From an uncultured Thiotrichaceae bacterium (GTDB taxonomy: Bacteria; Pseudomonadota; Gammaproteobacteria; Beggiatoales; Beggiatoaceae), in contig CAYMCP010000001.1 of assembly GCA_964388965.1 (NCBI GenBank), positions 12,422 through 76,421 of the forward strand: a stretch of DNA of 64,000 bases. Direction: 5' to 3'. Position 1 is the stretch's first letter, and each line of letters starts with the position of its first letter. The translations under genes and the position numbers were made by a program. This document shows, piece after piece, positions 13,076 to 31,496 of the stretch. The notes beneath the pieces were generated by a model that saw only the letters and a list, made by a program, of their open reading frames with translations, made no database searches and had not been told where the DNA came from.

Positions 13076-14221
13076 ATGCAGTCGATAATCAAAAAATCAT
13101 GTGCGAGGCAAAAAATGATAATAGAACAGGAGCATATTAATACCTTATTACTGGTAGATGACGTGCCTACTAATCTCAAAGTCTTATTTGGCTATCTCAA
13201 AAGTTGCAATTTTAAAGTACGCATCGCCCGCGACGGTGAAGACGCTCTAAATCAAGTTGCGCTAGCTAAACCCGATTTAATTTTACTAGATGTCATGATG
13301 CCTAAGATGGACGGTTTTGAAACATGTCGTCGTCTAAAAGCAAATGAGGCGACAAAGGATATTCCTGTAATTTTTATGACTGCGCTTACTGAAACGGTAG
13401 ACAAAGTAAAAGGTTTTGATGCAGGTGCGGTAGATTATGTAACAAAACCCATTCAACAGGAAGAAGTGCTCGCACGAATTAATAGCCATTTAATGTTGCG
13501 CGAATTGCAAAAAACATTACAACAAAAAAATGATGACTTCAAACAACAAAATCAAGAACTAGAATCTTTTGCTCATACGGTTGCACATGATTTAAAAAAT
13601 CCTATTAATGCCATTATTAACTACACGGAAATGTTAAAAGAAGATTTTGAGTTAGATAGTGAAGTATTTGAATTACTTGAAAAAATAGAGCAAGCAGGGC
13701 ATAAAATGACTGATATTATTGGCTCATTGTTATTATTAGCAAGCTCTCGTAAACAAACTGTTGATATGCAAGTTATTAGTATGAGTGATGTCGCGTATCA
13801 AGTACAACAACGTCTAGCCCACATGTGTGAAGAATTTGGTGCAACAATCCATTTTCCCGAATCGTGGCATCAAGCCGTCGGCTACGCGCCTTGGATTGAG
13901 GAGGTGTGGACGAATTATATTAGCAATGCGTTAAAATATGGTGGTCGTCCGCCGTTAGTCGAGTTAGGCTCAACTGATTTGGATGATGGATATATCAAAT
14001 TTTGGGTTAAAGACAATGGAGACGGATTAGATGAAGAAGAACAAAGTCATCTATTTGTACCGTTTACTCGTATTAGTCAAGTACGTGTTGAAGGACACGG
14101 TTTAGGCTTATCCATTGTGCAACGCATTGTTGAACGTTGTGACGGTAAAGTTGGAGTGGATAGTAAAAAAGGCTCTGGCTGTGTATTTTATTTTACTTTA
14201 CCTGCAAAACTTGAAAAATAA
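13076..14221 (+). CDS. Cytoplasmic response-regulator receiver / histidine kinase fusion (REC-coiled coil-HisKA-HATPase)
   Basis: REC motifs (LLVDDVP, LILLDVMMPKMDG, MTAL, VTKP). H-box FAHTVAHDLKNPINAI. HATPase N and G boxes (NYISNALKYG, GHGLGLSIV). No TM segment. Confidence 0.8.
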   Translation: MQSIIKKSCARQKMIIEQEHINTLLLVDDVPTNLKVLFGYLKSCNFKVRIARDGEDALNQVALAKPDLILLDVMMPKMDGFETCRRLKANEATKDIPVIFMTALTETVDKVKGFDAGAVDYVTKPIQQEEVLARINSHLMLRELQKTLQQKNDDFKQQNQELESFAHTVAHDLKNPINAIINYTEMLKEDFELDSEVFELLEKIEQAGHKMTDIIGSLLLLASSRKQTVDMQVISMSDVAYQVQQRLAHMCEEFGATIHFPESWHQAVGYAPWIEEVWTNYISNALKYGGRPPLVELGSTDLDDGYIKFWVKDNGDGLDEEEQSHLFVPFTRISQVRVEGHGLGLSIVQRIVERCDGKVGVDSKKGSGCVFYFTLPAKLEK

Positions 14222-14223
14222 CT

Positions 14224-15090
14224 ATGAATATCCAATGGTTTAAAAATATACAACTCTTTATCCTACAACAATTTGACCAAAGTGTAGATAGTTTGCAACA
14301 CGCTTTAAGTCAAAAACAATTCCGAGCTTGTGGTGATTATGAATTTAAAACTTTAGGTTGGATGCCATTTGAGGGTGATATGTTCACTTTTGAAGCAAAT
14401 GGTTGTATTTTTTTACGTTTGCGAATTCAAGAAAAAATCTTGCCTGCCTCAGTTATTCAAGATTTTGTAAACGAAAAAATTGCTGAAATTGAAACCGCAG
14501 AGTCACGCATTGTACGGCGCAAAGAGCGTAATGAAATCAAAGAACAAGTTACGCAAAGTTTACTGCCACGCGCCTTACCAAAAAATACGGATGTGTTACT
14601 ATATTTAGATATGGCGAATCAATGGTTAGTCATAGATATATCAAGCCGTCAGAAAGCAGAAGACATTTGTAGTTTTTTACGTGCAACTTTAGGCAGTTTT
14701 CCCGCTATTTCGCCACAATTTCAAATTTCACCATCATTGTTTATGACCCAATGGCTAAAAAATCAGCACACACCTGACGGTTTTATCTTAGGCGAAGATT
14801 GTAAACTGGTCGCCAGCGAAGGGGAGTCTGTCACTTGCAAGCAAATGGATTTACGCTCATCTGAGGTGCAAGAACACCTGAATACGGGTAAAATGGTGGA
14901 ATACTTGGCTTTAAATTGGGATAACCATTTAGAATTAATTTTAGATGAAAATTTTAGTATTAAACGTTTGAAATTTAACGATATTACACAAGAAGATGAA
15001 TTCACCGATATAACTATGATGACACTGGAATTTACCCGATTGATTCAAACTTTATTCAGTGTATTAGGTGGTTTGGCTAAAACTGCATAA
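14224..15090 (+). CDS. rdgC: Recombination-associated protein RdgC
   Basis: The N-terminal WFKNIQLF motif and ~290-aa length match RdgC. Confidence 0.8.
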   Translation: MNIQWFKNIQLFILQQFDQSVDSLQHALSQKQFRACGDYEFKTLGWMPFEGDMFTFEANGCIFLRLRIQEKILPASVIQDFVNEKIAEIETAESRIVRRKERNEIKEQVTQSLLPRALPKNTDVLLYLDMANQWLVIDISSRQKAEDICSFLRATLGSFPAISPQFQISPSLFMTQWLKNQHTPDGFILGEDCKLVASEGESVTCKQMDLRSSEVQEHLNTGKMVEYLALNWDNHLELILDENFSIKRLKFNDITQEDEFTDITMMTLEFTRLIQTLFSVLGGLAKTA

Positions 15091-15264
15091 TTATTAAATT
15101 ATCGTTAGATTATAGCTTTTAAATCCCGTTGTTAAACAATCGAAAATAACTTGATTTAGCTTATTTTAATTTTCTGAATGACATTGCTATAATATATACA
15201 TTCTACTAAAAATATTTTCATAGAGAATTGACAGATAATTTTCTCGAAATGATAGGTAATACAG

Positions 15265-16626
15265 ATGTTTGATAATTTAACCGAACGCTTAACTGCAACA
15301 TTTAAAAACTTACGTGGTCAAGGTCGTTTAACCGAAAAAAATATTAAAGAAGCTTTACGCGAACTGCGTATGGCTCTACTAGAAGCGGACGTTGCTTTGC
15401 CGGTCGCCAAAGCCTTTATTGAAAAAGTCCGCAAACAAGCCATTGGTAAAGAAGTATTACAAAGTCTCACGCCAGGACAAGAATTAATCCGCGTGGTGCG
15501 GGATGAATTAACTTCATTAATGGGCGAAAAAAATAATGCACTAGATTTAAATAGTCGCCCACCCGTTGTTGTATTGATGGCAGGCTTGCAAGGTTCGGGT
15601 AAAACGACATCTGTTGCTAAATTATCACGTTGGCTTATAGAGCGTGAAAAAAAGAAAGTTTTAGTTGTAAGCTGTGATGTCTATCGCCCCGCCGCAATCA
15701 AACAATTAGAAACCCTCGCCGATCAAGTAAAAGCCGATTTTTTCCCCAGCGATATTAAGCAAAAACCGATAGATATTGCTCATGCCGCATTAAACCATGC
15801 TAAACAAAAATTCTATGATGTGCTCTTGGTAGATACGGCTGGTCGTTTGCATATTGACGATGAGATGATGAATGAAATCAAGCAATTACATGCAGCGATA
15901 CAACCTCATGAAACCTTATTTGTCGTAGATAGTATGACAGGGCAAGATGCTGCTAATACGGCTAAAGCTTTTAATGATGCGTTACCACTTTCAGGGGTTA
16001 TTTTAACTAAAGCAGATGGTGATGCACGCGGTGGAGCAGCATTATCTGTGCGTCATATTACTGGTAAACCCATTAAATTTATCGGTACGGGTGAGAAAAC
16101 GGATGCCTTAGAGCCATTTTATCCCGAACGTTTAGCATCGCGTATCATTGGTCAGGGCGATATTTTAAGCCTGATTGAGGACGCAGAACGCAACGTTGAT
16201 CAAAAACAAGCTAGAAAATTAGTTAATAAACTGAGAAAAGGCAAAAGTTTTGATTTGGAAGATTTCCGTAATCAGCTCGTACAAATGCGCAATATGGGCG
16301 GCGTGGGAAATTTAATGGATAAGCTACCCGGTATGGGAGAAGTGCCGCAGCAAGCCAAAGAACAGGTTTCTGACAAAGAATTTAAGCGTATGGAAGCAAT
16401 TATTAATTCTATGACGTTAGTTGAAAGACGCTCGCCGGCTATCATTAAAGGTTCACGCAAAAAACGTATTGCAATGGGTTCTGGTACGCAAGTACAAGAT
16501 GTCAATCGCTTACTTAAACAATTCAATCAAATGCAGAAAATGATGAAACAAATGACTAAAAAAGGTGGTATGGAACGTTTAATGAGGGGTTTTAAGGGTA
16601 AATTACCTCAAGGACTACCGTTCTGA
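15265..16626 (+). CDS. ffh: Signal recognition particle protein Ffh
   Basis: MFDNLTERL N-terminus. GTPase motifs GLQGSGKTTS, DTAGR and TKADGD. Met-rich M domain at the C-terminus. Confidence 0.95.
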   Translation: MFDNLTERLTATFKNLRGQGRLTEKNIKEALRELRMALLEADVALPVAKAFIEKVRKQAIGKEVLQSLTPGQELIRVVRDELTSLMGEKNNALDLNSRPPVVVLMAGLQGSGKTTSVAKLSRWLIEREKKKVLVVSCDVYRPAAIKQLETLADQVKADFFPSDIKQKPIDIAHAALNHAKQKFYDVLLVDTAGRLHIDDEMMNEIKQLHAAIQPHETLFVVDSMTGQDAANTAKAFNDALPLSGVILTKADGDARGGAALSVRHITGKPIKFIGTGEKTDALEPFYPERLASRIIGQGDILSLIEDAERNVDQKQARKLVNKLRKGKSFDLEDFRNQLVQMRNMGGVGNLMDKLPGMGEVPQQAKEQVSDKEFKRMEAIINSMTLVERRSPAIIKGSRKKRIAMGSGTQVQDVNRLLKQFNQMQKMMKQMTKKGGMERLMRGFKGKLPQGLPF

Positions 16627-16717
16627 TATCCGATTTTAACAGTCAAAACATAATACGCTAGCTTGTTCGTGCATCAAAAACGCCTTTAATTAATCGGGGA
16701 ATGGAGAGGAGATATGT

Positions 16718-17329
16718 ATGTCGCTATCGAGGATACTTATTTTAGCTTATTTTTTAATAGGTTGCACAGCAGTACCTACCCAAGAAATGAGTGATGCGCG
16801 GCTTGCATTGAAAGCAGCACAAAAAGCCCATGCAGAGTATTATGTTCCTGAAAATATTGCCCAAGCACAAGATACTTTAAGCCAAGCAGAGCAAGCACTA
16901 TCAGAAGGACAATTTAATGAAGCGCGTCATAACGCCCTATTAGCCAAGGAGCAAGCGGTAAAGGCTTACGAAATGTCGGTTGCAGTTGATCAAGCAAAAA
17001 TGATTTGGCAAGAAATTGCTTTTTTAACTTATGATAAGGATATTAATTTATTATTTAAAAAAGCCAAAGAATTTGCCCAACAGGGGGATGTCAGCCAAAC
17101 TTTATATTTTGCATCACAAGTACATAAAGAAGGCGAAAAAACTTTAAATCGTCTCTACTTAGAGCAGGCAGGACACATCTTAGAAAAGCTACAGACTAAA
17201 CGTCATTCACTCAGTGAAAAAGACCTAACTGTACTAGAACAAGCTCAACTTGATTACATTAACAAGAAAGGAAAAAAGGCTTATAACTTAATATTTAAGC
17301 TTTATAATCGGCATTTTCTCAATCACTAG
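16718..17329 (+). CDS. Lipoprotein, DUF4398-like helical protein
   Basis: Lipobox LIGC after a signal sequence. GGAGAGGAG RBS. The helical A/Q/E-rich N-terminal region resembles DUF4398. Confidence 0.5.
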   Translation: MSLSRILILAYFLIGCTAVPTQEMSDARLALKAAQKAHAEYYVPENIAQAQDTLSQAEQALSEGQFNEARHNALLAKEQAVKAYEMSVAVDQAKMIWQEIAFLTYDKDINLLFKKAKEFAQQGDVSQTLYFASQVHKEGEKTLNRLYLEQAGHILEKLQTKRHSLSEKDLTVLEQAQLDYINKKGKKAYNLIFKLYNRHFLNH

Positions 17330-17551
17330 TATAATAATAAAACTTCATGTATATTTAGGAAAAGCAACTTATCTTGCAAGTTTTACACTTTGCTCGTAAC
17401 ATTCTAGCTTTGTTGATGAAAAGGCTCTATATAAATAACTAGCCATTGGTTTAAATTTAACGATACTTACCGACCAATAGGCGGGTTGGTGTAATTTTAG
17501 CAAACACTATTTAGCTTAAATGATGAGTATGATGGAATAGGCCTCAATGCC

Positions 17552-18118
17552 ATGAAAATAAACCGATTTAATTTAAAATACATAAGCTGCATGATACTGG
17601 TCTTGTCTACGCTCATGACTTCTTTTCTCGGTTATGCTGCACCTCCTGCCGCCAAAGAATACCAAATTAAAGCTGTTTTCTTATTCAATTTTGTCAATTT
17701 TATATCTTGGCCCGACGATGCTTTTACAGATAAAACCGAGCTTTTTATAATCTGCGTTGTAGGAAAAGACCCCTTTGGTATTTATTTAGACTTCACCACA
17801 GAAGGACAAACAACAAGAGATGGACGTGGATTAAAAATTAAACGCATTAAAGATAATTTACAAGAAATTCAAAGTTGCCATATCTTGTTTGTTAGTGATT
17901 CAGAGCAAAATAATTTGAATGCCATTTTTGAGAAAACACGAAATTCAGCAATTTTAACAGTTAGTGATATTGATAATTTTGTTAAAAAAGGTGGTATGGT
18001 AAAATTTTTTAATCGTAGCAATAAAATCCGTCTCGGAATTAATCCCGATGCTATTAAAGCAGCAAGGCTGATAGCTAATGCAAATTTGCTAAATCTCTCT
18101 CAAATTATCCGACCATAA
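17552..18118 (+). CDS. YfiR-family (DUF4154) periplasmic protein
   Basis: Signal peptide followed by EYQIKAVFLFNFVNFISWP...ILTVSD...GGMVKF...RLGINPDA...LLNLS. This matches the DUF4154/YfiR pattern as I recall it. Confidence 0.7.
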   Translation: MKINRFNLKYISCMILVLSTLMTSFLGYAAPPAAKEYQIKAVFLFNFVNFISWPDDAFTDKTELFIICVVGKDPFGIYLDFTTEGQTTRDGRGLKIKRIKDNLQEIQSCHILFVSDSEQNNLNAIFEKTRNSAILTVSDIDNFVKKGGMVKFFNRSNKIRLGINPDAIKAARLIANANLLNLSQIIRP

Positions 18119-18152
18119 CACGCATTGAACCACGCAATTGAATGAATTTATT

Positions 18153-21100
18153 ATGAAAAATTTTGCTGATTTATCCATCAAGCGTAAGCTTATTCTCATT
18201 ACCATGCTGGTCAATGTTGTTGCTTTACTTGCTGCGTCTGGTTTTTTCGCTGCAAATGAAGTCGCCTCACTCCGCAGTGCAATGGTTAGAGATTACAAAG
18301 TATTAGCGGAAGTAATTGGTGCAAACAGCGTCGCCTCACTAATGTTTTATGAGTCTGAATCAGCTAGCAAAACTTTAAGTGCTTTGTCGGCTGAAAAACA
18401 TGTAACGGGAGCGGTTATTTACGATCAATTAGGCGAAGTCTTCGCCCTTTACGAACGAAAAAATGCAAAAGGTTTTAATGCTCCAACCGTTCAAGAGAAT
18501 GGACACCATTTTGAAACATATCGCTTACTTATTTTTCAAGATATTAATTTTAATGGTCAAACGGTAGGTAAAGTATTCATTGAGTCAGATTTGGAAAGAA
18601 TTAATCAACTCATATTGGAATATGTGGTTATTATATTTGCTATTTTGTCAATTACATCACTACTTGCCTTTTTTCTCACAACTCGCCTACAAAGTTTAAT
18701 TTCTCGTCCAATTTTGCACTTAGTTGAAACCACAAATGCAGTGAGCAAAGGTAATGATTATGCAGTACGTGCTCAACGTTACGGTCGAGATGAATTAGGG
18801 CAATTGGTAGACGGTTTTAACGAGATGTTAGCACAAATTCAACGCCGTGATGAAATGTTAGCGCGACACCGAGACCACCTAGAAGATCAAGTAAAATTGC
18901 GAACCGCTGAATTATCAAAAATGAATTTAGATTTAGAGCAAACTATTGAGGACTTGCAAGAAGCCAAAGAAGCCGCAGAAGTCGCTAGTAAGGCAAAAAG
19001 TGAATTTTTAGCAAATATGAGCCATGAAATTCGCACCCCAATGAATGCAGTCATTGGTATGACGGGTTTGTTGGCGCAAACAGAATTAAACTTAGAACAA
19101 CGTGATTTCGTCGAAACTGTGCGCACTAGCAGTGATGCGTTATTAGCATTAATCAACGATATTTTAGATTTTTCCAAAATCGATGCAGGTAAATTAGAAT
19201 TAGAGCAACATCCTTTCAATATTCGAGAATGTGTAGAGGCAGCATTAGATTTGGTCACCTCTCGCGCTTGCGAAAACGGTTTAGAATTAGTCGCCTCATT
19301 CGATAAACATTTACCAAATAATTTATCTGGTGATGTCACGCGGTTACGACAAATTTTAGTCAATCTATTAAGCAATGCAGTAAAGTTTACTGAACATGGA
19401 GAAGTCATTGTTGAAGTATCTGGCTCTTTGCATTTTAATGGAAGAATTGAGCTATTTTTTGCGGTAAAAGATACTGGTATCGGCATCCCTATTGAGAGAA
19501 TGGATAGATTATTTCGTTCATTTAGCCAAGTTGATGCTTCGATGACGCGCAAATATGGTGGGACAGGGTTGGGCTTGGCGATTAGTAAACATTTATGTGA
19601 ATTAATGGGCGGTCGAATGTGGGTTACAAGCGAAATAGAAAAAGGTTCTACGTTTTACTTTACAATCGTTGCCGACCCAATCGAAGACGAAGATGAGAAA
19701 AATCAATTGCAAGATTCACGCGCCGAATTGAAAGGACAGCGCGTATTAGTCGTGGATGATAACCATACTAATCGCCGAATTTTAAATTTACAGCTACATC
19801 ACTGGGGCATGGAGGCAATTGAAGCGATGTCAGGTGAAGAAGCATTAAAAAAATTGCAAGATAAACACAAATTTAGTCTAGCAATTTTGGATATGCAGAT
19901 GCCCGTTATGGACGGTATGACGTTGGCACGACAAATTCGTAAACAATACAGTGCCTCTGAATTACCGCTTGTAATGTTGACCTCTTTGGGCAGACAACAA
20001 GCTGATATAGATATGAATTTATTTGCAGCTTATTTGAATAAACCCGTTAAATCCTCACAATTATTTGACTGCTTAATTGATATTTTTGCGCATAAAATGA
20101 TACATCCCAAGCCATTTATTCCGAAATCTCATCATCTAAGCAAAGTAGTGACATCAGGTCTACTTGTTGAAGAAAAACCATTGCGCATTTTATTAACCGA
20201 AGATAATTTGACTAATCAAAAAGTTGCACGTTTACTTTTAGATAGAATGGGTTTTAGTGAAAAAACGGGACTGGCGATTAGTATTGCTAATAATGGTGCT
20301 GAGGCGGTAGAGGCGGTTAAACAACGTCAATATGATGTGATATTAATGGACGTGCAAATGCCAGTCATGGACGGGTTTGAAGCGACAAAACAGATTCGGG
20401 AATATTGCAATAAACCAGAAGTGCGTCCTTATATTGTTGCTATGACTGCTCATGCTTTACGTGGTTATCGAGAAAAATGTTTAGAAGCAGGTATGGATGA
20501 TTATGTCACTAAACCTATACGTCCTGAAGATTTAGCAGCCGCATTAAAACGTTGTCCGCGTGTATACGAAGACTATAAATCTGTTGCATTAGAAGTAGTT
20601 GAGCCACAAACGAAACCAACGCAAGTACAAGTCGAACAAAAAACCGTTGAGCCGCAAGTAGAAAAAATCGAAAATGATAGCCGGGTAGCAAAATTAAAGG
20701 AAGAAATTCAACAAACCCTCATTAATTTGGTTGGTGAGGCAGAAGGTGAAATTGTCATTGAATTGCTCACAACTTATTTAGATAGTAGTAAAACATTAAC
20801 TGGAAATTTATCGACTGCCGTGGCACAGCAAGACCCAAAATTAATGGAACATGCTGCACATAGCTTAAAATCCAGTAGTGCCAGTTTGGGTGCAACCTTG
20901 TTATCTGAGATGAGTAGGCAACTAGAAAAGCAAGGGCGAGAAGGTGATATGACTGATGTTGAAGCAAAAGTCAGTGCATTGTTAGCAGAATATCAGGCAG
21001 TAAAACAAGCTTTAAAGCTTCTCTTGGGTGATTCGCCAGAATTTGTGGAAGTGGAAAATTCTACTGCTGTAGAAACGGAAAAAACATTAGAACAGCTTGC

Positions 21101-23054
21101 TGATGAAATTAAAGAAAATTTAGCCAACTTGGTAGGTGGTGATGATTTAGAATTATTTGAAGATTTATTAACTTCATATCAGGAAGAAGCTGATAATTTA
21201 ATTGCAGCATTAAAAACTGCTGTACAAACAGCCGACGCTGAGGCAATATTACAAGCAACACATAGCCTTAAATCTAGTAGTGGTAATCTAGGTTTAATTA
21301 CGCTTGGAGATTTATGTGCTGAATTAGAAGTACAAGCTAAAATTGACAATTTGGCAGATATTGACGGCACGTATAAACAAGTTTTGCAACATTATCAACA
21401 CGCAACGCAAGCAATACAATATATTTTACATTCAGCGTCTCCAGCCCCCTCATCTACCAGCACAGTAGAAAGTCTAGCGCAAGACATTCAGGAAGTGTTA
21501 GTAACGCTAGTCGGTGAAGATGAGCCAGAAATTATCACTGAATTAGTACAGACCTACACCGAAGACGCAGAGCCTTTGATGCAACAAATTCGTCAAGCAG
21601 TTCAAAAACAAGATATAGGCGATTTGTCCATTGCAGCCCATACGTTAAAATCGAGCAGTGGCAATTTAGGCGCGAATAGCATCGCTGAATTGAGTCTACA
21701 ACTTGAAACGGCGTGTAAAAATAATGCGTTAGATAGTATTGAAGATTTATCACTCAAATTAGAACAAGAATATCATATTTTACGTCAAGCCTTAGATCGG
21801 TTGCTTGGTGAAAAAGCAGAAATACCTAAAACCTCCGAAGCACCTGAAACAACTGAAACCACTACGAATATTGAGCCTGTTAAACCCATTAAAAAATCCG
21901 CAGAGCCTGTTAATTTAATGCTTGATGCTGAAGTCACACAACGCACTGAAACTTCAACATTTAGTGCAGGTCGTGATCCGGGCGACGTAACTTTGCTTGT
22001 CGTAGACGATCAGCCCTATGATACCTTATTGTTAAGCACCTATTTACGTGAAGAGGGATACCAAGTATTGACGGCTAATTCTGGTCAAGATGCTTTAGAT
22101 TTAGTCATTGAAAAAGACCCAGATATTGTATTATCTGACGTAATGATGCCGGGCATGGATGGTTTTGAAGTATGTATTAGAATTAAAGCACGTTCAGAAA
22201 GTGTACTGACACCAGTTGTATTAATCACTGCTTTAGATGGACAAAATGATCGAATTAAAGGTATTCAGGCGGGTGCGGATGAATTTCTCTCTAAACCGAT
22301 CAATCGTGAAGAATTGATAGCGCGCGTGCGGTCTCTATTACGTTACCAATTGGCGCGTTCTGAATTAGAAGAAGCCCAAAAAGAACATTTAAAAGGCATG
22401 TTTAAGCGTTACGTGTCACCCAAACTAGTAGACGAAATTTTAACCCATCCAGATAAAGCAGAAATCACCCTCGCTGACCAAAAGAATCGTTTAGACGCAG
22501 TAATTTTATTTGCAGACTTACGCGGTTTTACAGCAATGTCAGAAATGCTCAAACCAACCGACGTAGTCAGCCTACTAAATGAATTTTTCACTATGCTAAC
22601 CGAAGTCGGCTATCGCTATGATGGGACAATTTTTAATATGGCAGGTGATTGCTTATTAATTGGCTTTGGTGTGCCATTCCATCAAGAAGACGCGCCAGTA
22701 CGTGCTTTAAATGCTGCTATAGATATGCAAAAGGAATTTATTGCCTTAGACCACTCGTGGCGTAAAACCTATGATGTGGATGTCGGTTTAGGGATTGGTA
22801 TTAATAAAGGTGAATTGATTGTAGGCAATGTTGGTTCACCTAACTATATGAATTATACAGTAATTGGTGATACAGTGAATGTTGCATCACGTCTAGTCAG
22901 TATGGCTGGACGCGGCGAAATCATTATTTCTGATTCAATGTTAAAAAACATTCAAAGTGCGCATTCAAAAAATTATAATATCGAAGCACTAGAACCTGTC
23001 AATTTAAAAGGAAAATCTCAACTACAACAAGTATATCGTGTTGTTTCCGAGTAA
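18153..23054 (+). CDS. Giant hybrid sensor kinase / intramolecular phosphorelay ending in a class III nucleotidyl cyclase (periplasmic sensor-HAMP-HisKA-HATPase-REC-REC-Hpt x3-REC-cyclase)
   Basis: Start at ATG 18153 (the track starts at TTG 18138). H-box [12 protein letters not shown] (His codon 19023). HATPase to about 19680. REC at about 19741-20100 and 20181-20560. Three Hpt His codons at 20859, 21261 and 21639. Third REC at about 21990-22350. Cyclase motifs [19 protein letters not shown] and [11 protein letters not shown] at about 22490-23040. Confidence 0.85.
20685..21860 (+). repeat. Three tandem in-frame Hpt-domain repeats (about 126-134 aa each) inside the giant kinase
   Basis: Repeated blocks: L.NLVGE...ELLTTY ... 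[12 protein letters not shown]; LANLVGG...DLLTSY ... [12 protein letters not shown]; LVTLVGE...ELVQTY ... [12 protein letters not shown]. Confidence 0.8.
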
Positions 23055-23057
23055 ATT

Positions 23058-24932
23058 ATGACCCATTTTACCTCTAATAAATATGTTATTACGGTCGGTT
23101 TTAGCGTGGTGTTACTTCTACTACTGCTCATTACCTTTACCGGCTTGGCGCGAATGTACATATTAAAAATGCATGTCAACCAGATTGTGCAAAATAATAA
23201 TATAAAAACAGAGTTAGCGCACACCATGCTCAATGCGGCGCGTGAACGTGTTATTGCACTACAAACGATGTATCTTACTGATGACCCATTTACCAGAGAA
23301 GACGCTTATACACAGTTTAACAATTTGGCAAGTGAATTCATGCAGGCGCGCTCTGAGCTGCTACGGATGTCGCTATCGAATAATGAACAAGCCTTAATTG
23401 ATTACATATCCCCCCTGACCCGCCAAGCATCGACCAAACAACGTGAATTTGCAGAACTACTATTAGATGAGCAAGCTGTTGATATTCAAGCCTTAATGAA
23501 TCAATATATTATCCCAGTACAACAAGCGGTGCGAGAGTCTTTATTCAAATTAGTGAAATTACAAAAACAGTCTTCAGATGACGCATTTCGCGAAACGATG
23601 CAAACTTATCATGAAGGGTATTTTTTAATCTGGACCGCAGGCATATTGGCTATTTTGTTGGGATTAAGTATTGCGTTTATTGTCTTCCGCCACATTAATC
23701 GTACTGAAAACTTACTACTAGATGCAAAAAATCTTGCTGAAATTGCAAATAAAGCCAAGACTGATTTTCTAGCAAACATGAGTCATGAATTACGCACGCC
23801 ACTAAATGCAGTGGTTAATATGAGCCATTTATTAATGGATACAAAATTAACTGCTGAACAAAAAGAATTAGTGACTACTGTCAGACAAAGTGGTGATGAA
23901 TTTTTACGCTTAATCGACAGTATTTTAGATTTTTCCAAAATTGAAGCAGGCAAATTGACTCTACAACCAAAAATGTTTACATTAAGAGTTTTAATTGATA
24001 ATTTAATGGAAATAGCTCGATCTAAAGCAAAAGCGAAACATTTAAATTTAACTTTATTGTATGATGATCAAGCTCCAAAACAAGTGATTGGCGATGTAGA
24101 ACGTTTGCGACAAATTTTAATACATTTACTTGATAATGCAATTAAATTTACTGATCATGGTGAAGTATTATTATCATTAACAGCGCGTAATATTTCAACA
24201 TGCCAAGATAAAATAGAGCTTTACATCACAGTTAAAGACACAGGCATAGGGATTCCATTCGAGCGTCGAGATCGTCTATTTCAGCCGTTCACACAAGTAG
24301 ATACCTCTACTACTCGCCGCCATAGTGGTTCAGGTATTGGCTTGGCACTATGTAAACAACTATGTCAATTAATGGGTGGGACATTATGGGTCGAAAGTGA
24401 GGTAAATTATGGTACAACATTTCATTTAACGATTACTTTGGACTTACTCACGGACAAACACCAAACCAATACGGAATTTAAATTTACGACACCTGTGACT
24501 AATTTACGCATTTTACTAGTCGAAGATAATCAAACAAATCAAAAAGTTGCACAATTAGTATTGCGTAAATTGGGTTACGAAATTGATATTGTCAGCAACG
24601 GACTGAAAGCGGTTGAATCAGTCAATCAACATTTATACGATATTGTATTAATGGATATACAAATGCCAGAATTAGACGGTTTAGAAGCAACTCGTAAAAT
24701 TTTAGATAATTGGCCAATTGGGCAACGTCCTTATATTATCGCCATGACCGCACATGCACTACAAGGTGATCGAGAAAAATGTCTTGCAGCCGGTATGGAC
24801 GATTACATTGCAAAACCAGTTAAATTAGAGGAATTAGAAGCTGCTATTGGGCGTTGGCAGGCATGGAATATTTCCCGTAATTTAAAACACCAAACTCGTC
24901 AGGAAATTTATACAACTAAAGATAATGATTAA
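23058..24932 (+). CDS. Hybrid sensor histidine kinase (TM-helical sensor-TM-HisKA-HATPase-REC)
   Basis: ATG lies 3 nt after the stop of the giant gene. H-box MSHELRTPLNAV. HATPase G boxes. C-terminal REC (LLVEDNQTNQ, IVLMDIQMPELDG, MTAH, IAKP). No Hpt domain. Confidence 0.85.
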   Translation: MTHFTSNKYVITVGFSVVLLLLLLITFTGLARMYILKMHVNQIVQNNNIKTELAHTMLNAARERVIALQTMYLTDDPFTREDAYTQFNNLASEFMQARSELLRMSLSNNEQALIDYISPLTRQASTKQREFAELLLDEQAVDIQALMNQYIIPVQQAVRESLFKLVKLQKQSSDDAFRETMQTYHEGYFLIWTAGILAILLGLSIAFIVFRHINRTENLLLDAKNLAEIANKAKTDFLANMSHELRTPLNAVVNMSHLLMDTKLTAEQKELVTTVRQSGDEFLRLIDSILDFSKIEAGKLTLQPKMFTLRVLIDNLMEIARSKAKAKHLNLTLLYDDQAPKQVIGDVERLRQILIHLLDNAIKFTDHGEVLLSLTARNISTCQDKIELYITVKDTGIGIPFERRDRLFQPFTQVDTSTTRRHSGSGIGLALCKQLCQLMGGTLWVESEVNYGTTFHLTITLDLLTDKHQTNTEFKFTTPVTNLRILLVEDNQTNQKVAQLVLRKLGYEIDIVSNGLKAVESVNQHLYDIVLMDIQMPELDGLEATRKILDNWPIGQRPYIIAMTAHALQGDREKCLAAGMDDYIAKPVKLEELEAAIGRWQAWNISRNLKHQTRQEIYTTKDND

Positions 24933-24981
24933 ATTTGTTTAAACTCAAGGGCTTAAAACTATTAAATTGTAAAAAACCATC

Positions 24982-25355
24982 CTATCTATCAGTTAATAGC
25001 TGCATTAATTTAAATTCCAATTTCGTAAAAACACTTGACCAATCTTTAATTTGAGACTGTCTAAACAAGGTAACGCTTGGGTACCAAGGACTATCTTCGC
25101 GCTCTAATAACCATCTCCAATCAGGTACATAAGGCAATAATACCCACGTTTTTTGTCCCAATGGATAAATGTGCTACAGCAGTATCTACAGAAATAATTA
25201 AATCTAAGGCTAAAATGAGCGATGCGGTATCGGTAAAATCCTGTAATTGTTGCGTACAATCGCGGTTGTTTCAAAGCCTGTAAATAAAATTCAATTGCTT
25301 GTGCATATCGATGATTTTGTACCGCCTCTTGTGCTTGAATCAGTAAATTTTGCAT
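24982..25355 (-). pseudogene. Degraded remnant of a TPR-repeat glycosyltransferase (GT9/GT41-like C-terminal module)
   Basis: Three minus-strand frames each carry a piece. Frame a: MQNLLIQAQEAVQNHRYAQAIEFYLQALKQP (TPR-like). Frame a+1: DCTQQLQDFTDTASLILALDLIISVDTAVAHLS. Frame a+2: PLGQKTWVLLPYVPDWRWLLEREDSPWYPSVTLFRQSQ...*, with stop at 24982-24984. Confidence 0.7.
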
Positions 25356-25452
25356 TGGAATTGCCTAAATCATAAGAATAAATCAGTATATTGTGCTATT
25401 TATTAAATAATAAAAAACGCTAATTTTCTAAATAATGATCTTAGGTAATGAC

Positions 25453-26094
25453 TCAGTTTGGTCTAATGCGTGGCAAACTCGCGTGCTCAAAAGCCTTGAT
25501 ATGTGCAATAATTTCTAATGAATGCTCTCTTTCCTGTTGATTTTCTAACACAATTCGCACTGCATTTGGCAATGAGCGACGATCTTCCCCATCCCATTTT
25601 TCCAACCATTTTGTATCTTTATCATTAAATTGATCATCATAATATAAATATTCAAAATTCACATCAAAACCCTCAAATACCACAATAGGCTGTTCAATTT
25701 CTTCTAACGATTCAGTCGGATCACCTGCAAAAGCTGAAATAGTACGGATTTCGATACCCTCTTTTTCACTCGATGTTAATTGCCACGCGGTCAGCCCCGG
25801 TTTACGTCCAGGAGACAACGTCGAAACCCACGCTAATTTATCCTGCTCACCGATAAAAAATACAACAGGTTGCCTCCTGTCCTCGTCCAAATAGGTATGT
25901 GGAAAAGCAGCATCTAAAGCACGTTCTAGCTGCAACAATACCAGCACCTGATCCAAACTTTGCTCCAAACGTGAGCCGTTACGCTCCCAATCCTTTAATA
26001 CCACCTGCATTCCCGAAGCCAACAGCAACATGATAGAAGCGGATAACGCTAAAGCAATTAATAATTCTAGTAAAGTAAAGCCATTATTACGCAT
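25453..26094 (-). CDS. Prepilin-type N-terminal cleavage/methylation domain protein (minor pseudopilin, GspJ/PulJ-like)
   Basis: MRNNGFTLLELLIALALSASIMLL is a class III signal. ATG 26094 is preferred over the track start 26172, which would overlap gltX. No other T2SS/T4P genes are nearby. Confidence 0.6.
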   Translation of the reverse strand: MRNNGFTLLELLIALALSASIMLLLASGMQVVLKDWERNGSRLEQSLDQVLVLLQLERALDAAFPHTYLDEDRRQPVVFFIGEQDKLAWVSTLSPGRKPGLTAWQLTSSEKEGIEIRTISAFAGDPTESLEEIEQPIVVFEGFDVNFEYLYYDDQFNDKDTKWLEKWDGEDRRSLPNAVRIVLENQQEREHSLEIIAHIKAFEHASLPRIRPN

Positions 26095-26171
26095 AGTTAG
26101 ATAAGTGATAGATTTATAGATTGCGACAAGTATAATGTTGTTTTGCTTTGACAACAAATTTAAATATGACA

Positions 26172-27575
26172 ATGATAAAAACCCGTTTCGCGCCTAGTCC
26201 AACTGGCTATATGCACTTAGGTAATGCTAGAACTGCTTTATTTAACGCATTATTTGCTATTCATCATCAAGGTATATTTTTGCTGCGCATCGAAGATACA
26301 GACCAAGAGCGTAGTGAAACACAATATGTGACCCAACTCAAAGCTGATTTACAGTGGCTAGGTATGGATTGGCAAGAGGGACCTGATGTCGGCGGTGAAC
26401 ATACACCTTATTTTCAGTCGCAACGTACTGAAATTTATGCACAATATTACCAACAATTAATTGACAGTGGCAGAGCTTATCCTTGTTTTTGTTCGCCGCG
26501 TGAATTGGAATTGTCACGTAAATTACAACGTGCGTCAGGTCAAGCACCACGTTATGCGGGCACTTGTGCGCATTTAAATCAACAAGAAATCGGGCGTAAA
26601 CTTGCAGAAGGTTTACAACCTACATTACGTTTTAGGATGCCGCGTGATGAATTAATTGAATTTAACGATATAGTTAAAGGGCAACAACGTTTTGCTAGTC
26701 ATGATATTGGTGATTTTATTATTCGTCGCGCTGACGGTACACCTGCATTTTTCTTCTGCAACGCGATAGATGATGCACTAATGGGTGTCACACACGTTTT
26801 TCGTGGTGATGATCATTTGACCAATACGCCACGCCAGCAAATGATTTTACAAAGTTTAGGTTTAACAGTACCACAATATGGACATATTTCATTAATTTTA
26901 GGCGATGATGGTGCACCATTGTCGAAACGAAATGGTAGTTTAAGTATTCAAGAGTTAAAACACACAGGTTGGCAGCCTAATGCCGTGGTGAATTATTTAT
27001 CACGTTTAGGTCATGCGTTCGAGGAAGAAAAAGGTTATTTATCCATTAAAGAACTCGCAGCAGGATTTAAATTATCGCGTTTGGGTAAAGCGGCTTCTCG
27101 ATTTGATAAACAGCAATTACTGCATTGGCAACAGGCGGCAATTGCTGAAAGCGACATTGATATTTTATGGCAACAAATGCCTGTCAGTGTAAAAAATATT
27201 GTGCCCACTGCAAAACAACAAGATTTTATTGTGACAGTTCGTCCTAATATCCTCTTTCCACAAGATGCACAACAGTGGGCTGCTATTTTATTTAATGATA
27301 ATTTACAATACAAAATGGAAGCGATTGATGTCATTATTGAAGCGGATAGAAATTTTTTCCAACATGCAATACAGGCTTTGGAAGATACACAAGCGGATTA
27401 TAAATCATTAATTGAGCAGTTAAAGCAAGTAGCAGGTGTCAAGGGTAAAAAATTATTTATGCCGCTGCGTGCAGCTTTGACGGGTGAAACGCATGGACCT
27501 GAAATGGCAAATTTATTGGATTTAATGGGTATTGAACGGGCAAGACAGCGGTTGCAACACGCTATGAATTTTTAA
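26172..27575 (+). CDS. gltX: Glutamate--tRNA ligase
   Basis: MIKTRFAPSPTGYMHLGNARTALFN (HIGH region) and a PLSKRNGS (KMSKS-type) motif. The start could also be ATG 26166. Confidence 0.93.
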   Translation: MIKTRFAPSPTGYMHLGNARTALFNALFAIHHQGIFLLRIEDTDQERSETQYVTQLKADLQWLGMDWQEGPDVGGEHTPYFQSQRTEIYAQYYQQLIDSGRAYPCFCSPRELELSRKLQRASGQAPRYAGTCAHLNQQEIGRKLAEGLQPTLRFRMPRDELIEFNDIVKGQQRFASHDIGDFIIRRADGTPAFFFCNAIDDALMGVTHVFRGDDHLTNTPRQQMILQSLGLTVPQYGHISLILGDDGAPLSKRNGSLSIQELKHTGWQPNAVVNYLSRLGHAFEEEKGYLSIKELAAGFKLSRLGKAASRFDKQQLLHWQQAAIAESDIDILWQQMPVSVKNIVPTAKQQDFIVTVRPNILFPQDAQQWAAILFNDNLQYKMEAIDVIIEADRNFFQHAIQALEDTQADYKSLIEQLKQVAGVKGKKLFMPLRAALTGETHGPEMANLLDLMGIERARQRLQHAMNF

Positions 27576-27610
27576 TTTACATCGTACAAACAAAATTATC
27601 AATTTAGGCA

Positions 27611-27643
27611 AAGGTGCATAAACAAAATCTCGTCATGCACCTT
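27611..27643. terminator. Perfect 9-bp hairpin between convergent gltX and the Crp/Fnr gene
   Basis: AAGGTGCAT (27611-27619) pairs with ATGCACCTT (27635-27643), 15-nt loop. No strong T-tract on either side. Confidence 0.4.
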
Positions 27644-27709
27644 CTGCTATGATTCATTGATTTTATTATATATTTTAAAAAATTGCTTTGGACTAATGTT
27701 GTAAAAATT

Positions 27710-28384
27710 CTACCAATTTGTATCATCTTGCAAACGGCGCAAAGCCTGTGACGAGCAAACTACAATATACGATTCATGCTCAATAATGATTCCCATTTTT
27801 TTCATCTTACTCAATACTCTGGAAAAAGTTTCAGGCTGCAATCCTAAACGAGAAGCAATCATTGCCTTTGTTGCAGGTAAGTAAATTTGGTAATTTTCCA
27901 CTTCTCCAGCCGAAAAACTTAGTAAATAACTCGCCACTCTTTGTTGAGCATTGCTTAGACTCAAGTGATGAATATCATTTAAAAATTGGTGGATGCGCCG
28001 ACTAAGATTAGCTAACATTTTAATGGCTAATTCAGGATTTTGTTTTAATTGTTGACGCAATACCTCACTGGGAATCGCAATTAATTCCGTTTTCTCGATT
28101 GCACTTGCGTATACTGGCATTGGTGCATCTAGGATAGCCACGGCTTCGGCAAAAGTTTCTCCACGATGTACAATTTCAATCACTTTTTCTTTACCTTCCG
28201 GACTCAGTCGATATAACCGCATACTACCGCTTACGACCAAAAAAAAAGCAGTCGCGGGCATCCCCTGACTAAATAATAATTGACCATGAGCAAGAACATG
28301 ATGATGAGCAGCTTTTACAAATGGGGCTAAATCACTCGTTGACAGAGTGTTGAATAGCGTTATTTGTTGTAACAATTGTTCCAT
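27710..28384 (-). CDS. Crp/Fnr-family transcription regulator (Dnr/NnrR/HcpR-like; lacks the FNR Cys cluster)
   Basis: cNMP-binding-type beta-roll plus a C-terminal HTH with ETFSRVLSKM (E-x-x-S-R as in FNR). Only one Cys in the protein, so not an FNR-type Fe-S sensor. Divergent from hcp. Confidence 0.85.
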   Translation of the reverse strand: MEQLLQQITLFNTLSTSDLAPFVKAAHHHVLAHGQLLFSQGMPATAFFLVVSGSMRLYRLSPEGKEKVIEIVHRGETFAEAVAILDAPMPVYASAIEKTELIAIPSEVLRQQLKQNPELAIKMLANLSRRIHQFLNDIHHLSLSNAQQRVASYLLSFSAGEVENYQIYLPATKAMIASRLGLQPETFSRVLSKMKKMGIIIEHESYIVVCSSQALRRLQDDTNW

Positions 28385-28442
28385 CGGATTATCTTCCGTT
28401 TTTATGACTAAAAATTTTTTGTGCGTAACATTATTAATCGAC

Positions 28443-28456
28443 TTGATTTATATCAA
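28443..28456. promoter_or_regulatory. Perfect FNR/Crp-family box TTGAT-N4-ATCAA in the regulator/hcp divergent region
   Basis: TTGATttatATCAA at 28443-28456. GATAAT at 28479-28484 would place a start site near 28491, which puts the box centre at -41.5 (class II geometry) for hcp. Confidence 0.6.
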
Positions 28457-28647
28457 GAAAGTTATTTACACAATTTGCGATAATGACAACCTGTTGTATA
28501 ACAATACGACAGCCTCCGTATACTAACTCATTAATTTTACATAGCTAAAAAATGATGTAACTTAAAAAATAGTTATAAATAATTGTAAAAATTTGATTTG
28601 GCGAGGTGTTAGTATAAATCAATTTTTATTTTAAAAAAGGTATTTTT

Positions 28648-30300
28648 ATGTTTTGTTATCAATGCGAACAAACACAACGCACTTTAGAACAGGTTGGTTG
28701 TATCAATGAGCGTGGAGCTTGCGGTAAGGATGCCGCAACATCCGATTTACAAGATATTTTAATTTATCAAATCAAAGGTATTGCACAATACGCATCGTAT
28801 GCGCGCAATTTTGGTGTAATTGACAAAGAAGTGGATGATTTTATCCAATATGGCTTATTTACTACTTTAACTAATGTTAATTTTAATGCTACTCGTTTTG
28901 TTAAGATGATTCATCAAGCAGCAACCATCCGCGACCAAATTAAAACGCATTACGAAGCGGTTGCTCATACAAAAGAACAGCTTAGTGCTGCTGCGCAATT
29001 TCAACCCGCAGAAAGTATGGATGATATTTTACGCCAAAAAGCAGTCGCGGCACTCGACCACGATCAAGCAACGGTCGGTGCGGATGTGATTGGTTTACGG
29101 GTATTAATTTTGTACGGTATGAAGGGTACATCTGCCTATTCACATCATGCACGCGCGTTAGGTTATCATACTGATGAAATTGACGCAAAAACAGAACGGC
29201 TACTTAGCTATTTAGCCAATGATCCAACAGATATTAATGAATTGCTGAAAACGTCATTAGAAGTAGGGCATTTAAACTTAAAAGTTATGGAATTACTTGA
29301 TCGCGCTAATAATGAGACCTTTGGTCAACAGGAAATTACACCAGTGCGAATAACACCAATAGCAGGCAAAGCGATTTTGGTGAGCGGTCATGACTTGCAT
29401 GATTTAGAGCAGCTACTGAAACAAACAGAGGGAAGTGGTATTAATGTTTATACTCACGGCGAAATGCTACCAGCGCACGCCTACCCTAAATTAAAGCATT
29501 ATTCTCATTTAATCGGTAATTACGGTGGCGCATGGCAAAATCAGCAACAGGAATTTGCGACTTTTCCGGGTCCGATTGTGTTGACTTCTAATTGTTTGAT
29601 TGAACCTGACAAAAGTTATCGGCAACGCATTTTTACCACAGGACCAGTAGGTTGGTCTGGTGTAAGGCATATCGACGATAATGACTACAAAACGGTTATT
29701 CAAGCAGCCAAAGCATTGCCCGGCTTTAAGGAAAGTGTGCCAGAACAAACCATTACTATTGGTTTTGGTCATAACACCATCATGAGTGTTGCAGATCAAG
29801 TCATTAACGGTGTAAAAAGTGGTGCAATTCAACATTTCTTTGTTATCGGTGGTTGCGATGGTGCAAAACCTGGACGAAATTATTACACTGAATTGGCGAG
29901 CCAAACACCTGATAATACGGTGATATTAACGCTAGGTTGTGCTAAATATCGCTTTAATAAACAAACATTTGGTGATATTGGTGGCATTCCGCGTTTATTG
30001 GATTTGGGACAGTGTAATGATGCTTATTCTGCAATTAAAATTGCGGCGACGCTCGCTGAAACCTTTGAATGCGATATTAATGATTTACCTTTATCTTTGA
30101 TGATCTCTTGGTTTGAACAAAAAGCGACGGCGGTTTTACTATCTCTATTAGCCAGCGGTGTTAAAGGCATCCACTTAGGTCCGAGCTTACCTGCTTATCT
30201 CACGCCTAATTTGCTAAATATTTTACAAGAGCAATTTGATTTGCGCGTCAATAATACGCCAGAAGCAGATTTACAATGCGCTTTAAAAAAGGCGGCGTAG
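28648..30300 (+). CDS. hcp: Hybrid cluster protein / hydroxylamine reductase
   Basis: MFCYQCEQT...C...C N-terminal Cys cluster, ~550 aa, typical Hcp sequence throughout. Confidence 0.95.
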
Positions 30301-30338
30301 GGATAAAAACGACTATAAACGGGTAAATTAAGCAAAAA

Positions 30339-30431
30339 TCGTAGGGGACATAAAGGCGATAGCGTCCATGCAACACTGGGTGTAAGAATTATAAAAATCG
30401 GTGTATGATGCTGCATTTATACCCCCTACGA
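30339..30431. repeat. 9-bp inverted repeat enclosing about 75 nt in the hcp-hcr spacer; possibly a diverged REP-family copy
   Basis: tcgtagggg (30339-30347) pairs with cccctacga (30423-30431). The internal ggaca...agcgtcc resembles the ggacgcaccagcgtcc unit of the REP-like elements. Confidence 0.3.
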
Positions 30432-30452
30432 AAATTATAAAAGGATTAATAC

Positions 30453-31496
30453 ATGCCTGAATATCGAATTAAATTGAATACTAGCGATGCCCAAACCATT
30501 TCATTTACATGCGAACCCGATCAGGATTTGATAACAGCCGCTATTGAAGCAAATATATATCTCGTTGCTCAATGTCGTTCTGGCAGTTGTGGTGCGTGTG
30601 TTGCGCACTGCGAGCAAGGTGATTTTGAACTCGCAAGTTACAGCGAGGATGTTTTATCTGAATTATCACGTCAGCAAAAACACGTTTTACTATGTCGGAC
30701 TTATCCGCGCAGTGATATGGTGTTAAATTTAACATATAACTATAATTTAATTAATTTTTCATATCCTGTGCAGCGTAGTGCAACAATTATCAATAAAACA
30801 TATCTCACTCCTGACACAATTAAGTTAGAATTACAGTTAATCGAAGATGCAGAAGGTAATACAACTTTAAATTTTCAACCCGGACAATTTGTTGAGTTAT
30901 TTATTCCTGAGACTGAGATTAAACGCCCATATTCACTAGCTAACGCACCCAATTGGGATGGTTTACTTGAATTTTTAATCAAATTACATTCAGACGGCAG
31001 ATTTAGCACTTTTTTACGAGAAAATGCCAATATTGGCACGGTTTTAAAATTAAACGAGGCTCAGGGTCGTTTTACGCTAGTTGAACACGGTTTGCGTCCA
31101 CGTTATTTTGTTGCGGGAGGGTGCGGTTTGGCATCCGTTCTGTCTATGCTGCGTTACATGGCTGAATTACAAGAACCACATGAAACGAAATTATTTTTTG
31201 GAGTATGGAAAGAAGAAGAATTATTTTATCAACAGGAATTAGCTGCTTTAGCTGCTGATTATAATCATTTTAATTATCAACTTTGCGTGACTAGACCGAG
31301 CGAAACTTGGCAAGGATACCGTGGTTCAGTCGTTGATGCCTTAGACAATACATTGCAACATGCTACGACACTTCCTGATATTTATATTTGTGGATCGACG
31401 GGTTTGATTGAAGCCGTTGCAAATGTTGCCAAAAAGTATGGTATTGAACGTGATTCACTTATCTATGAACATTACAGTAATTCATGCGCAACTTAG
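30453..31496 (+). CDS. Ferredoxin-NAD(P)H oxidoreductase, probable Hcp reductase (N-terminal plant-type 2Fe-2S, then FAD and NAD modules)
   Basis: CRSGSCGAC...C ferredoxin motif at the N-terminus. RPYSLAN FAD-binding motif. GGCGLAS NAD(P)H-binding motif. Located directly downstream of hcp. Confidence 0.75.
   Translation: MPEYRIKLNTSDAQTISFTCEPDQDLITAAIEANIYLVAQCRSGSCGACVAHCEQGDFELASYSEDVLSELSRQQKHVLLCRTYPRSDMVLNLTYNYNLINFSYPVQRSATIINKTYLTPDTIKLELQLIEDAEGNTTLNFQPGQFVELFIPETEIKRPYSLANAPNWDGLLEFLIKLHSDGRFSTFLRENANIGTVLKLNEAQGRFTLVEHGLRPRYFVAGGCGLASVLSMLRYMAELQEPHETKLFFGVWKEEELFYQQELAALAADYNHFNYQLCVTRPSETWQGYRGSVVDALDNTLQHATTLPDIYICGSTGLIEAVANVAKKYGIERDSLIYEHYSNSCAT

Follow-up and report, generated by a model that had tools for sequence, protein, structure and literature searches.

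The closest described systems to the locus analyzed here are YfiBNR (TpbB/DgcN) of Pseudomonas aeruginosa and Escherichia coli and HmsCDE of Yersinia, in which the gene for a secreted protein with the YfiR fold lies 5' of the gene for a protein that carries a CHASE8 sensor domain between two transmembrane (TM) helices, followed by a HAMP domain. HmsC is a negative regulator of its CHASE8 protein, and YfiR and HmsC are the only characterized relatives known to us. YfiR is also a negative regulator of its CHASE8 partner (PMC4655355, PMC4992967). The YfiR/CHASE8 input has so far been known only for control of cyclic di-GMP and biofilms, the output domain of YfiN being a GGDEF diguanylate cyclase. 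We analyzed a 64,000-nucleotide stretch of DNA (the window) from an uncultured Thiotrichaceae bacterium (family Beggiatoaceae in the GTDB lineage; positions 12,422 to 76,421 of contig CAYMCP010000001.1, assembly GCA_964388965.1), in which a gene for a 188-amino acid (aa) YfiR-like periplasmic protein (17552..18118) is followed on the + strand by a gene for a 1633-aa sensor kinase, phosphorelay, and cyclase protein (18153..23054) and a gene for a 624-aa second hybrid kinase, HK2 (23058..24932). Here the CHASE8 protein has a histidine kinase, a phosphorelay, and a class III nucleotide cyclase as its output, and Pfam finds no GGDEF domain in it. We consider it probable that these genes form a conserved Beggiatoaceae module in which a periplasmic signal is converted to a cyclic nucleotide by an intramolecular multistep phosphorelay, with HK2 as a second input.

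The cytoplasmic part of the large protein can also be compared with known proteins. Cyanobacterial CyaC (Spirulina/Anabaena) combines a kinase, receivers, and a class III cyclase in one polypeptide; it is soluble, is not known to have a CHASE8 or YfiR partner or an Hpt domain (its relay is His-Asp), and has Lys/Thr at the specificity positions. The large protein differs from it by a membrane CHASE8 input and three Hpt domains, and the likeness is functional only. The CyaC sequence in the PDB (1WC0) matches the cyclase of the large protein with only 60 bits. The CyaC cyclase is activated by autophosphorylation and phosphotransfer (Kasahara and Ohmori 1999, pmid 10329724, as cited in PMC1183210). 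The unorthodox hybrid kinases (BarA/GacS, ArcB, TorS) have the same order of TM sensor, HAMP, kinase, receiver (REC), and Hpt, and TorS and BarA are the best NCBIfam similarities of the large protein, which differs from this class by two tandem receivers, by 2–6 Hpt domains among its orthologues, and by a terminal response regulator in cis with an enzymatic output. Members of a large family of stand-alone REC-cyclase regulators, known from Rhodocyclaceae, Burkholderiales, and further proteobacteria (Beta- and Gammaproteobacteria included), match that terminal part, from the last receiver through a linker to the cyclase, at 47–55% identity and share its invariant residues (Asp, Asp, Asn, Arg, and Thr); these are separate proteins of 365–400 aa, whereas here the regulator is fused to the whole upstream relay. 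Each part of the protein has been seen before; what has no earlier description is their combination and its conservation across the family, together with the Hpt array of variable length and the non-canonical pocket of the cyclase.

Pfam and hydropathy analysis give the 1633-aa protein the order TM-CHASE8-TM-HAMP-HisKA-HATPase-REC-REC-Hpt x3-REC-class III cyclase. Its open reading frame (ORF) is 1638 aa long when counted from an in-frame TTG at 18138, and residue positions are given here in that numbering. The ATG at 18153 is almost certainly the true start as judged from alignment, because the orthologues open with MK(N/S/V)FADLS; with this start, the large gene lies 34 nt after the YfiR-like gene and 3 nt before the HK2 gene. 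The CHASE8 sensor (18273..18581, +; residues 46–148) was detected with PF17152 at 52.2 bits against a cut-off of 27 and is flanked by TM helices at 18186–18272 and 18606–18689 (+; residues about 17–45 and 157–184, by hydropathy). It is followed by HAMP (18696..18842, +; residues 187–235; PF00672, 41.3 bits) and by a kinase core (18993..19667, +) composed of HisKA with the H-box SHEIRTP (18993–19190, +; residues 286–351) and HATPase_c (19329–19667, +; residues 398–510). Two receivers come next, REC1 (19743..20069, +; residues 536–644; PF00072, 72.7 bits) and REC2 (20187..20546, +; residues 684–803; 89.8 bits). The Hpt array (20760..21788, +; PF01627) holds three domains, at 20760–21011 (+; residues 875–958; 55.2 bits), 21162–21380 (+; residues 1009–1081; 48.9 bits), and 21540–21788 (+; residues 1135–1217; 57.8 bits). 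The protein ends with REC3 (21996..22331, +; residues 1287–1398; PF00072, 105.1 bits), a helical linker (22332–22496, +), and the class III cyclase (22497..23030, +; residues 1454–1631; PF00211, Guanylate_cyc, 92.5 bits). A first-pass annotation made from the DNA letters had described three tightly packed + strand genes with 34- and 3-nt gaps, a TM-flanked CHASE8-type periplasmic region, and each of these domains in the large protein; the ORF calls, hydropathy, and Pfam agree with it throughout, and the sensor-region peptide that it quoted is present in the translated ORF.

To place this architecture in its family, 55 genomes from 27 genera were searched, 49 of which gave strong matches, and domain maps were made for 28 fetched orthologous loci; counts of 29 loci below include the window. 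An orthologue of full length is present in about 20 of the 55 genomes, which represent about 14 of the 27 genera. The same full architecture is on record for Beggiatoa alba B18LD, B. leptomitoformis, Thioflexithrix psekupsensis, and Candidatus Venteria ishoeyi, and the orthologue in the closest named relative, 'Candidatus Albibeggiatoa sp. BB20', is 79% identical. Orthologues of this kind sit in a 4.24-Mb scaffold of B. alba and a 1.18-Mb contig of Thioflexithrix, and finished Beggiatoa genomes are among those that have one. The single long ORF is real and old: an assembly artefact or fusion of ORFs, which had been named as a possible objection, was rejected because the ORF is intact in finished genomes and across many genera. 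When 301 genomes of the class were sampled, this sensor was normally found on ordinary kinases of 500–1040 aa; among these genomes, only members of the Beggiatoaceae reach 1470–1810 aa, and those proteins bear the Hpt array, REC, and cyclase.

By sequence, the His-Asp-His-Asp chain of the large protein appears complete, with the H-box His, the ATPase, the receiver Asp/Thr/Lys sets, and the Hpt His present and conserved. The H-box His is kept in 29/29 orthologues, as is the acceptor Asp of REC1, the acidic pair of which is lost in one distant orthologue. All key residues of REC2 are kept in 30/30 orthologues, and REC2 is the likely relay receiver. REC3 keeps its key residues in 25–26 of 26 orthologues and its acceptor Asp in all 26. 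Each of the three Hpt domains carries H(S/T)LKSSS, at a mutual identity of 36–40%, and H(S/T/P)LKSSS is kept by nearly all of the 97 Hpt copies in the orthologous loci. The possibility that the window protein contains pseudo-receivers or pseudo-Hpt domains was considered and rejected, since loss of the His is limited to a few copies in other genera and loss of the acidic pair to REC1 of the one distant orthologue.

Natural variants in which the protein is divided provide information on the order of the relay. In three loci of one genus (L011, L030, and L033), a protein of 1255–1273 aa that runs from CHASE8 to the third Hpt domain is followed directly downstream by a separate REC-cyclase gene of 368–373 aa, and locus L010 encodes a REC2-Hpt x4-REC3-cyclase protein without a kinase. 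The split REC-cyclase genes support the order kinase, REC, Hpt, REC, cyclase. The large protein is thus best read, from these comparisons, as an entire two-component phosphorelay that has been fused in cis together with its terminal response regulator.

Hpt copy number varies from 2 to 6 among orthologues. A tree of Hpt domains separates every first copy from every last copy, at weak basal support, and shows the middle copies to be lineage-specific duplicates of either type; the ancestral array probably held two Hpt types. In a 1945-aa metagenomic orthologue (P0028), a unit of about 170 residues, made up of a linker and an Hpt domain, occurs twice in near-identical form, which shows a recent tandem duplication inside the array. 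Two loci of one genus with 8–9-Mb genomes (L035, 4565–9571; L036, 4501–9525) have six Hpt domains, no terminal REC3-cyclase, and no YfiR-like gene nearby, and the last Hpt domain in each has lost its His.

The YfiR-like protein matches Pfam DUF4154 ('YfiR/HmsC-like') with 136.5 bits (cut-off 24.9) over profile positions 1–142 of 143. It also passes the NCBIfam model NF053591 (YfiR_like_TOL0243, 'TOL_0243 family YfiR-like periplasmic protein') with 127 bits against a cut-off of 125, and residues 13–236 of the large protein, which include the sensor, pass NF053592 ('HK_near_YfiR_like') with 200.7 bits against a cut-off of 194. The pairing of a YfiR-like protein with a histidine kinase has therefore already been recognized by NCBI curators, and in the window both proteins exceed the curated cut-offs and their genes lie 34 nt apart. 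An AlphaFold2 model of the YfiR-like protein (predicted local distance difference test score, pLDDT, 82.2) has YfiR as all 15 of its best PDB fold matches (E about 1e-8 to 1e-6, TM-score 0.70–0.75, target-normalized), and on the basis of this model, the protein is predicted to have the YfiR fold. Its N terminus is hydrophobic at residues 8–30, followed by G-Y-A/AP, a predicted signal peptide that marks it as a putative secreted protein. The cysteines of one of the two disulfide pairs of P. aeruginosa YfiR (Cys71–Cys110) are kept: the aligned residues, Cys68 and Cys109, occur without exception in the orthologues (22/22). The YfiR-like gene lies immediately 5' of the kinase gene in 22 of the 29 CHASE8-bearing loci, often with a 4-nt overlap with the kinase start. 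This arrangement and the split REC-cyclase genes fit the proposal of the first-pass annotation that a YfiR/CHASE8 input would be wired to a His-Asp-His-Asp relay and a cyclase. The third component of YfiBNR is the OmpA/Pal-like YfiB, whereas here a DUF4398 lipoprotein gene, described below, lies upstream.

The same genome (3.37 Mb, 99.9% complete) contains a second arrangement of this kind. On contig C37, a YfiR-like gene (26201–26836, minus strand) lies directly 5' of a gene for an 824-aa CHASE8 kinase (23704–26178), and an ORF for a 672-aa class III cyclase (28641–30659) is about 2 kb away. This set (23704–30659) may be an unfused version of the YfiR-like/CHASE8 kinase/cyclase wiring. In total, the genome has 15 class III cyclase domain matches, 6 DUF4154 genes, and 5 CHASE8 matches.

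At the other end of the large protein, the cyclase is predicted to be catalytically competent. The solved structures closest to it are those of P. aeruginosa CyaB (3R5G), an adenylate cyclase, and Synechocystis Cya2 (2W01), a guanylate cyclase, and alignment to both indicates that it keeps the two metal-binding Asp residues and the transition-state Asn/Arg pair (VNVASR). These four positions and the two that select the base are invariant in 25/25 orthologues. A pseudo-cyclase, which had been raised as an objection to a cyclase output, was rejected because the catalytic residues are all present and invariant.

HK2 has a periplasmic four-helix bundle of the 4HB_MCP type (4HB_MCP_1; 23091–23603, +) with a TM helix on each side by hydropathy, and Pfam places HisKA at 23754–23951, HATPase_c at 24090–24440, and a receiver at 24510–24848 (all +). 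As the first-pass annotation had noted, it has a receiver, and no Hpt domain was found in it by the Pfam scan. The HK2 receiver keeps its key residues in 11/11 orthologues and is 57% identical to REC2, with other receiver pairs at 29–35% identity. In a tree of 96 receivers, the REC2 and HK2 receivers form one clade (Shimodaira-Hasegawa-like approximate likelihood ratio test, SH-aLRT, 96) separate from REC1 and REC3, and the HK2 receiver is the best match of the REC2 type in the genome. An HK2 gene lies directly 3' of the large gene in the window and in 11 other loci (12/29), and no locus with HK2 has fewer than three Hpt domains, a raw association that is uncorrected for phylogeny. Because the HK2 receiver is the closest paralogue of REC2, the earlier suggestion that HK2 feeds the Hpt array of the large protein gains support, and the sequence data favor it without proving it. 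A parallel is offered by the GacS-RetS-LadS multi-kinase network, in which LadS is reported to converge on the Hpt domain of another kinase, GacS; HK2, as an Hpt-less hybrid kinase, may converge in this way on the Hpt domains of the large protein.

Based on these results, we propose the following sequence of events. By analogy with YfiR and YfiN, the YfiR-like protein would bind the CHASE8 domain and set the activity of the kinase, and its release or an altered mode of binding, for example through a redox change at Cys68–Cys109 or sequestration by an envelope partner such as the lipoprotein, would act as the switch. The signal would pass from CHASE8 through HAMP to the kinase of a dimeric membrane protein, and phosphate would then move from the H-box His to a receiver, probably REC2, on to an Hpt His, and finally to REC3; both steps rest on the intact conserved sites and on the split forms of the protein. 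Phosphorylated REC3, acting through the helical linker, would bring the paired cyclase domains of the homodimer into alignment and start synthesis. HK2 would read a second periplasmic signal by its four-helix bundle and would probably give phosphate to, or drain it from, the same Hpt array, which would let the large protein integrate two or more inputs.

Several observations weigh against this reading, and they are taken here with the alternatives that they touch. In the literature, we found no description of a YfiR-like/histidine kinase/cyclase wiring or of the NF053591/NF053592 pairing. REC1 has no place in the proposed order of transfer; it may act as a sink or a regulator, or offer another route for the phosphate. 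The periplasmic partner cannot be obligatory, given that 7 of the 29 orthologue loci lack a YfiR-like gene within 4.5 kb. A six-frame profile search of these seven loci and of the kinase-less locus L010 found no remnants of such a gene. In a mirror-tree comparison, the raw correlation between the YfiR-like protein and the periplasmic domain (r 0.82) lies within the range for the cytoplasmic domains (0.76–0.88), and the partial correlations gave nothing specific to the periplasmic domain. Two of the orthologous loci (L016, 4477–9435; L017, 4477–9405) have the full architecture and HK2 and no YfiR-like gene, and their CHASE8 regions are far more divergent (phmmer scores of 81 and 56 bits, compared with 187–423 in most other loci), which would fit relaxed constraint after loss of the partner.

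The sign of the periplasmic control is not readable from the sequence, and in a different account the YfiR-like protein is a ligand-presenting, activating co-sensor that resembles a periplasmic binding protein: its loaded form would switch the kinase on, and it would repress nothing. The fold matches that rank next after YfiR are Rhodothermus substrate-binding proteins (TMq about 0.5), and the YfiR equivalog model, NF053586 (sequest_YfiR), gives the protein 32.2 bits where 85 are required. The second disulfide pair of P. aeruginosa YfiR (Cys145–Cys152) has no counterpart in it, and no OmpA-domain partner of the YfiB type is encoded among the flanking genes scanned (13076–17329 and 25453–30300). 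The proposal of a YfiR-type partner stands for the family match and the predicted fold and fails for equivalence with YfiR itself. Against an activating role stand the two characterized relatives, HmsC and, in the studies cited above, YfiR, which are negative regulators of CHASE8 proteins, and we regard a co-sensor of this kind as unlikely.

The nature of the product is a second point of doubt. M. tuberculosis Rv1900c, which has Asn at the position of the Lys, is mainly an adenylate cyclase. The first base-selecting position of the window cyclase is likewise Asn (IFNMAGD), aligned to the Lys of CyaB and the Glu of Cya2, and the second is Thr (NYTVIG). Among 110 stand-alone REC-cyclase relatives, neither Lys nor Glu is seen at the first position, which is Asn in 90 and Ser in 20, and Thr fills the second position in all of them. 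Class III cyclases with Lys/Asp use ATP, and those with Glu and a variable residue use GTP (PMC4215837); the Asn/Thr pair fits neither the adenylate nor the guanylate rule. An inspection of these residues for Lys/Asp or Glu/Cys, which the first-pass annotation had advised, thus gives neither pair, and the product of this class III cyclase with intact catalytic residues, put by that annotation as cyclic AMP (cAMP) or cyclic GMP (cGMP), is not readable from the sequence. By the precedent of Rv1900c, the product is probably cAMP, with substantial uncertainty. A bolder combination would have the Asn(Ser)/Thr pocket make something other than cAMP (cGMP, a pyrimidine cyclic nucleotide, or a mixture) and the Hpt array, with its 2–6 copies of two ancient types, serve as a docking hub for several Hpt-less hybrid kinases with REC2-type receivers. 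If both parts were true, the locus would encode a YfiR-gated, multi-input pathway from the periplasm to a non-canonical cyclic nucleotide, with the DUF4398 lipoprotein in the role of YfiB; we think the combination distinctly unlikely.

The assignment of HK2 as a second input faces the fact that in more than half of the 29 loci no HK2 gene lies downstream of the large gene. In addition, the genome has 14 Hpt matches in about 10 ORFs, a stand-alone 122-aa Hpt protein and other Hpt-bearing proteins being present, and other REC2-type receivers, so HK2 could signal elsewhere. It could even be an independent kinase that acts through another Hpt protein and is a neighbor merely because the kinase-REC2 segment was duplicated; the 51% identity between its kinase core and the one in the large protein is consistent with local duplication. 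The 3-nt gap, on the other hand, suggests co-transcription, the gene is found in the same place in the 12 loci noted above, and its receiver is of the type that precedes the Hpt array, which has at least three domains wherever HK2 is found. We would give full independence of HK2 a low probability. Cross-wiring between HK2 or the large protein and other Hpt domains or REC2-type receivers of the genome, in either direction, is possible. As a separate observation, a 1190-aa ORF on contig C44 (22760–24229) also has three Hpt domains.

The least probable alternative, which we consider very improbable, is that the kinase and receiver modules are mainly a dimerization scaffold for a cyclase that is constitutive or otherwise regulated, as in Dictyostelium adenylate cyclase R (ACR), a protein with kinase, receiver, and cyclase domains of its own, where mutations of the kinase ATP site or the receiver Asp barely alter activity, the phosphorelay is dispensable, and HisKA, which can supply the dimerization that class III cyclases require, serves for dimerization (PMC3009899); ACR, however, has lost its phospho-acceptor His, whereas here that His, three receiver Asp/Thr/Lys sets, and the Hpt His are kept across genera, and the split variants, in which the REC-cyclase is made as a protein of its own, indicate that no covalent scaffold is needed.

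If the phosphorelay reading is correct, an input known from c-di-GMP control would here drive a different second messenger. The split and fused forms, with 2–6 Hpt domains, form a comparative series for asking why a relay would have more than one Hpt domain and how several kinases can feed a shared output. The cyclases with Asn or Ser in the pocket are a large, uncharacterized clade, and their product is a concrete biochemical question. Beggiatoaceae are gliding gradient organisms rich in cyclases, and the large protein is a plausible link between the state of the envelope or its redox conditions and behavior.

The genes around the locus include one further candidate component. The DUF4398 lipoprotein gene (16718..17329, +, 203 aa; Pfam DUF4398, 35.7 bits) encodes a protein with the lipobox L-I-G-C in the N-terminal sequence MSLSRILILAYFLIGC and ends 222 nt 5' of the YfiR-like gene. 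Besides the window, 13 orthologous loci have a DUF4398 homologue just 5' of the kinase gene or the YfiR-like gene; four of these loci have no YfiR-like gene. B. alba has DUF4398-OmpA genes about 4 kb from its locus. Searches of the PDB and NCBIfam gave no functional lead for this protein. We infer from its position that it is a candidate third, outer-membrane component, formally analogous to YfiB and unrelated to it. A scan for promoters and terminators in the locus gave a site count not above that of shuffled sequence; it marked a weak hairpin at 17468–17491, between the lipoprotein gene and the YfiR-like gene.

Other features of the window are of minor interest here. An antisense ORF of 221 aa (18887–19552, minus strand) within the kinase core region of the large gene is almost certainly spurious. 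A soluble REC-HisKA-HATPase kinase of 381 aa is encoded at 13076–14221, 4 kb upstream, with rdgC and ffh in between. A Crp/Fnr-family regulator with a cyclic nucleotide monophosphate (cNMP)-binding domain is encoded at 27710–28384 (minus strand), 2.8 kb downstream and adjoining hcp; it may be of the FNR/Dnr type rather than a cNMP receptor.

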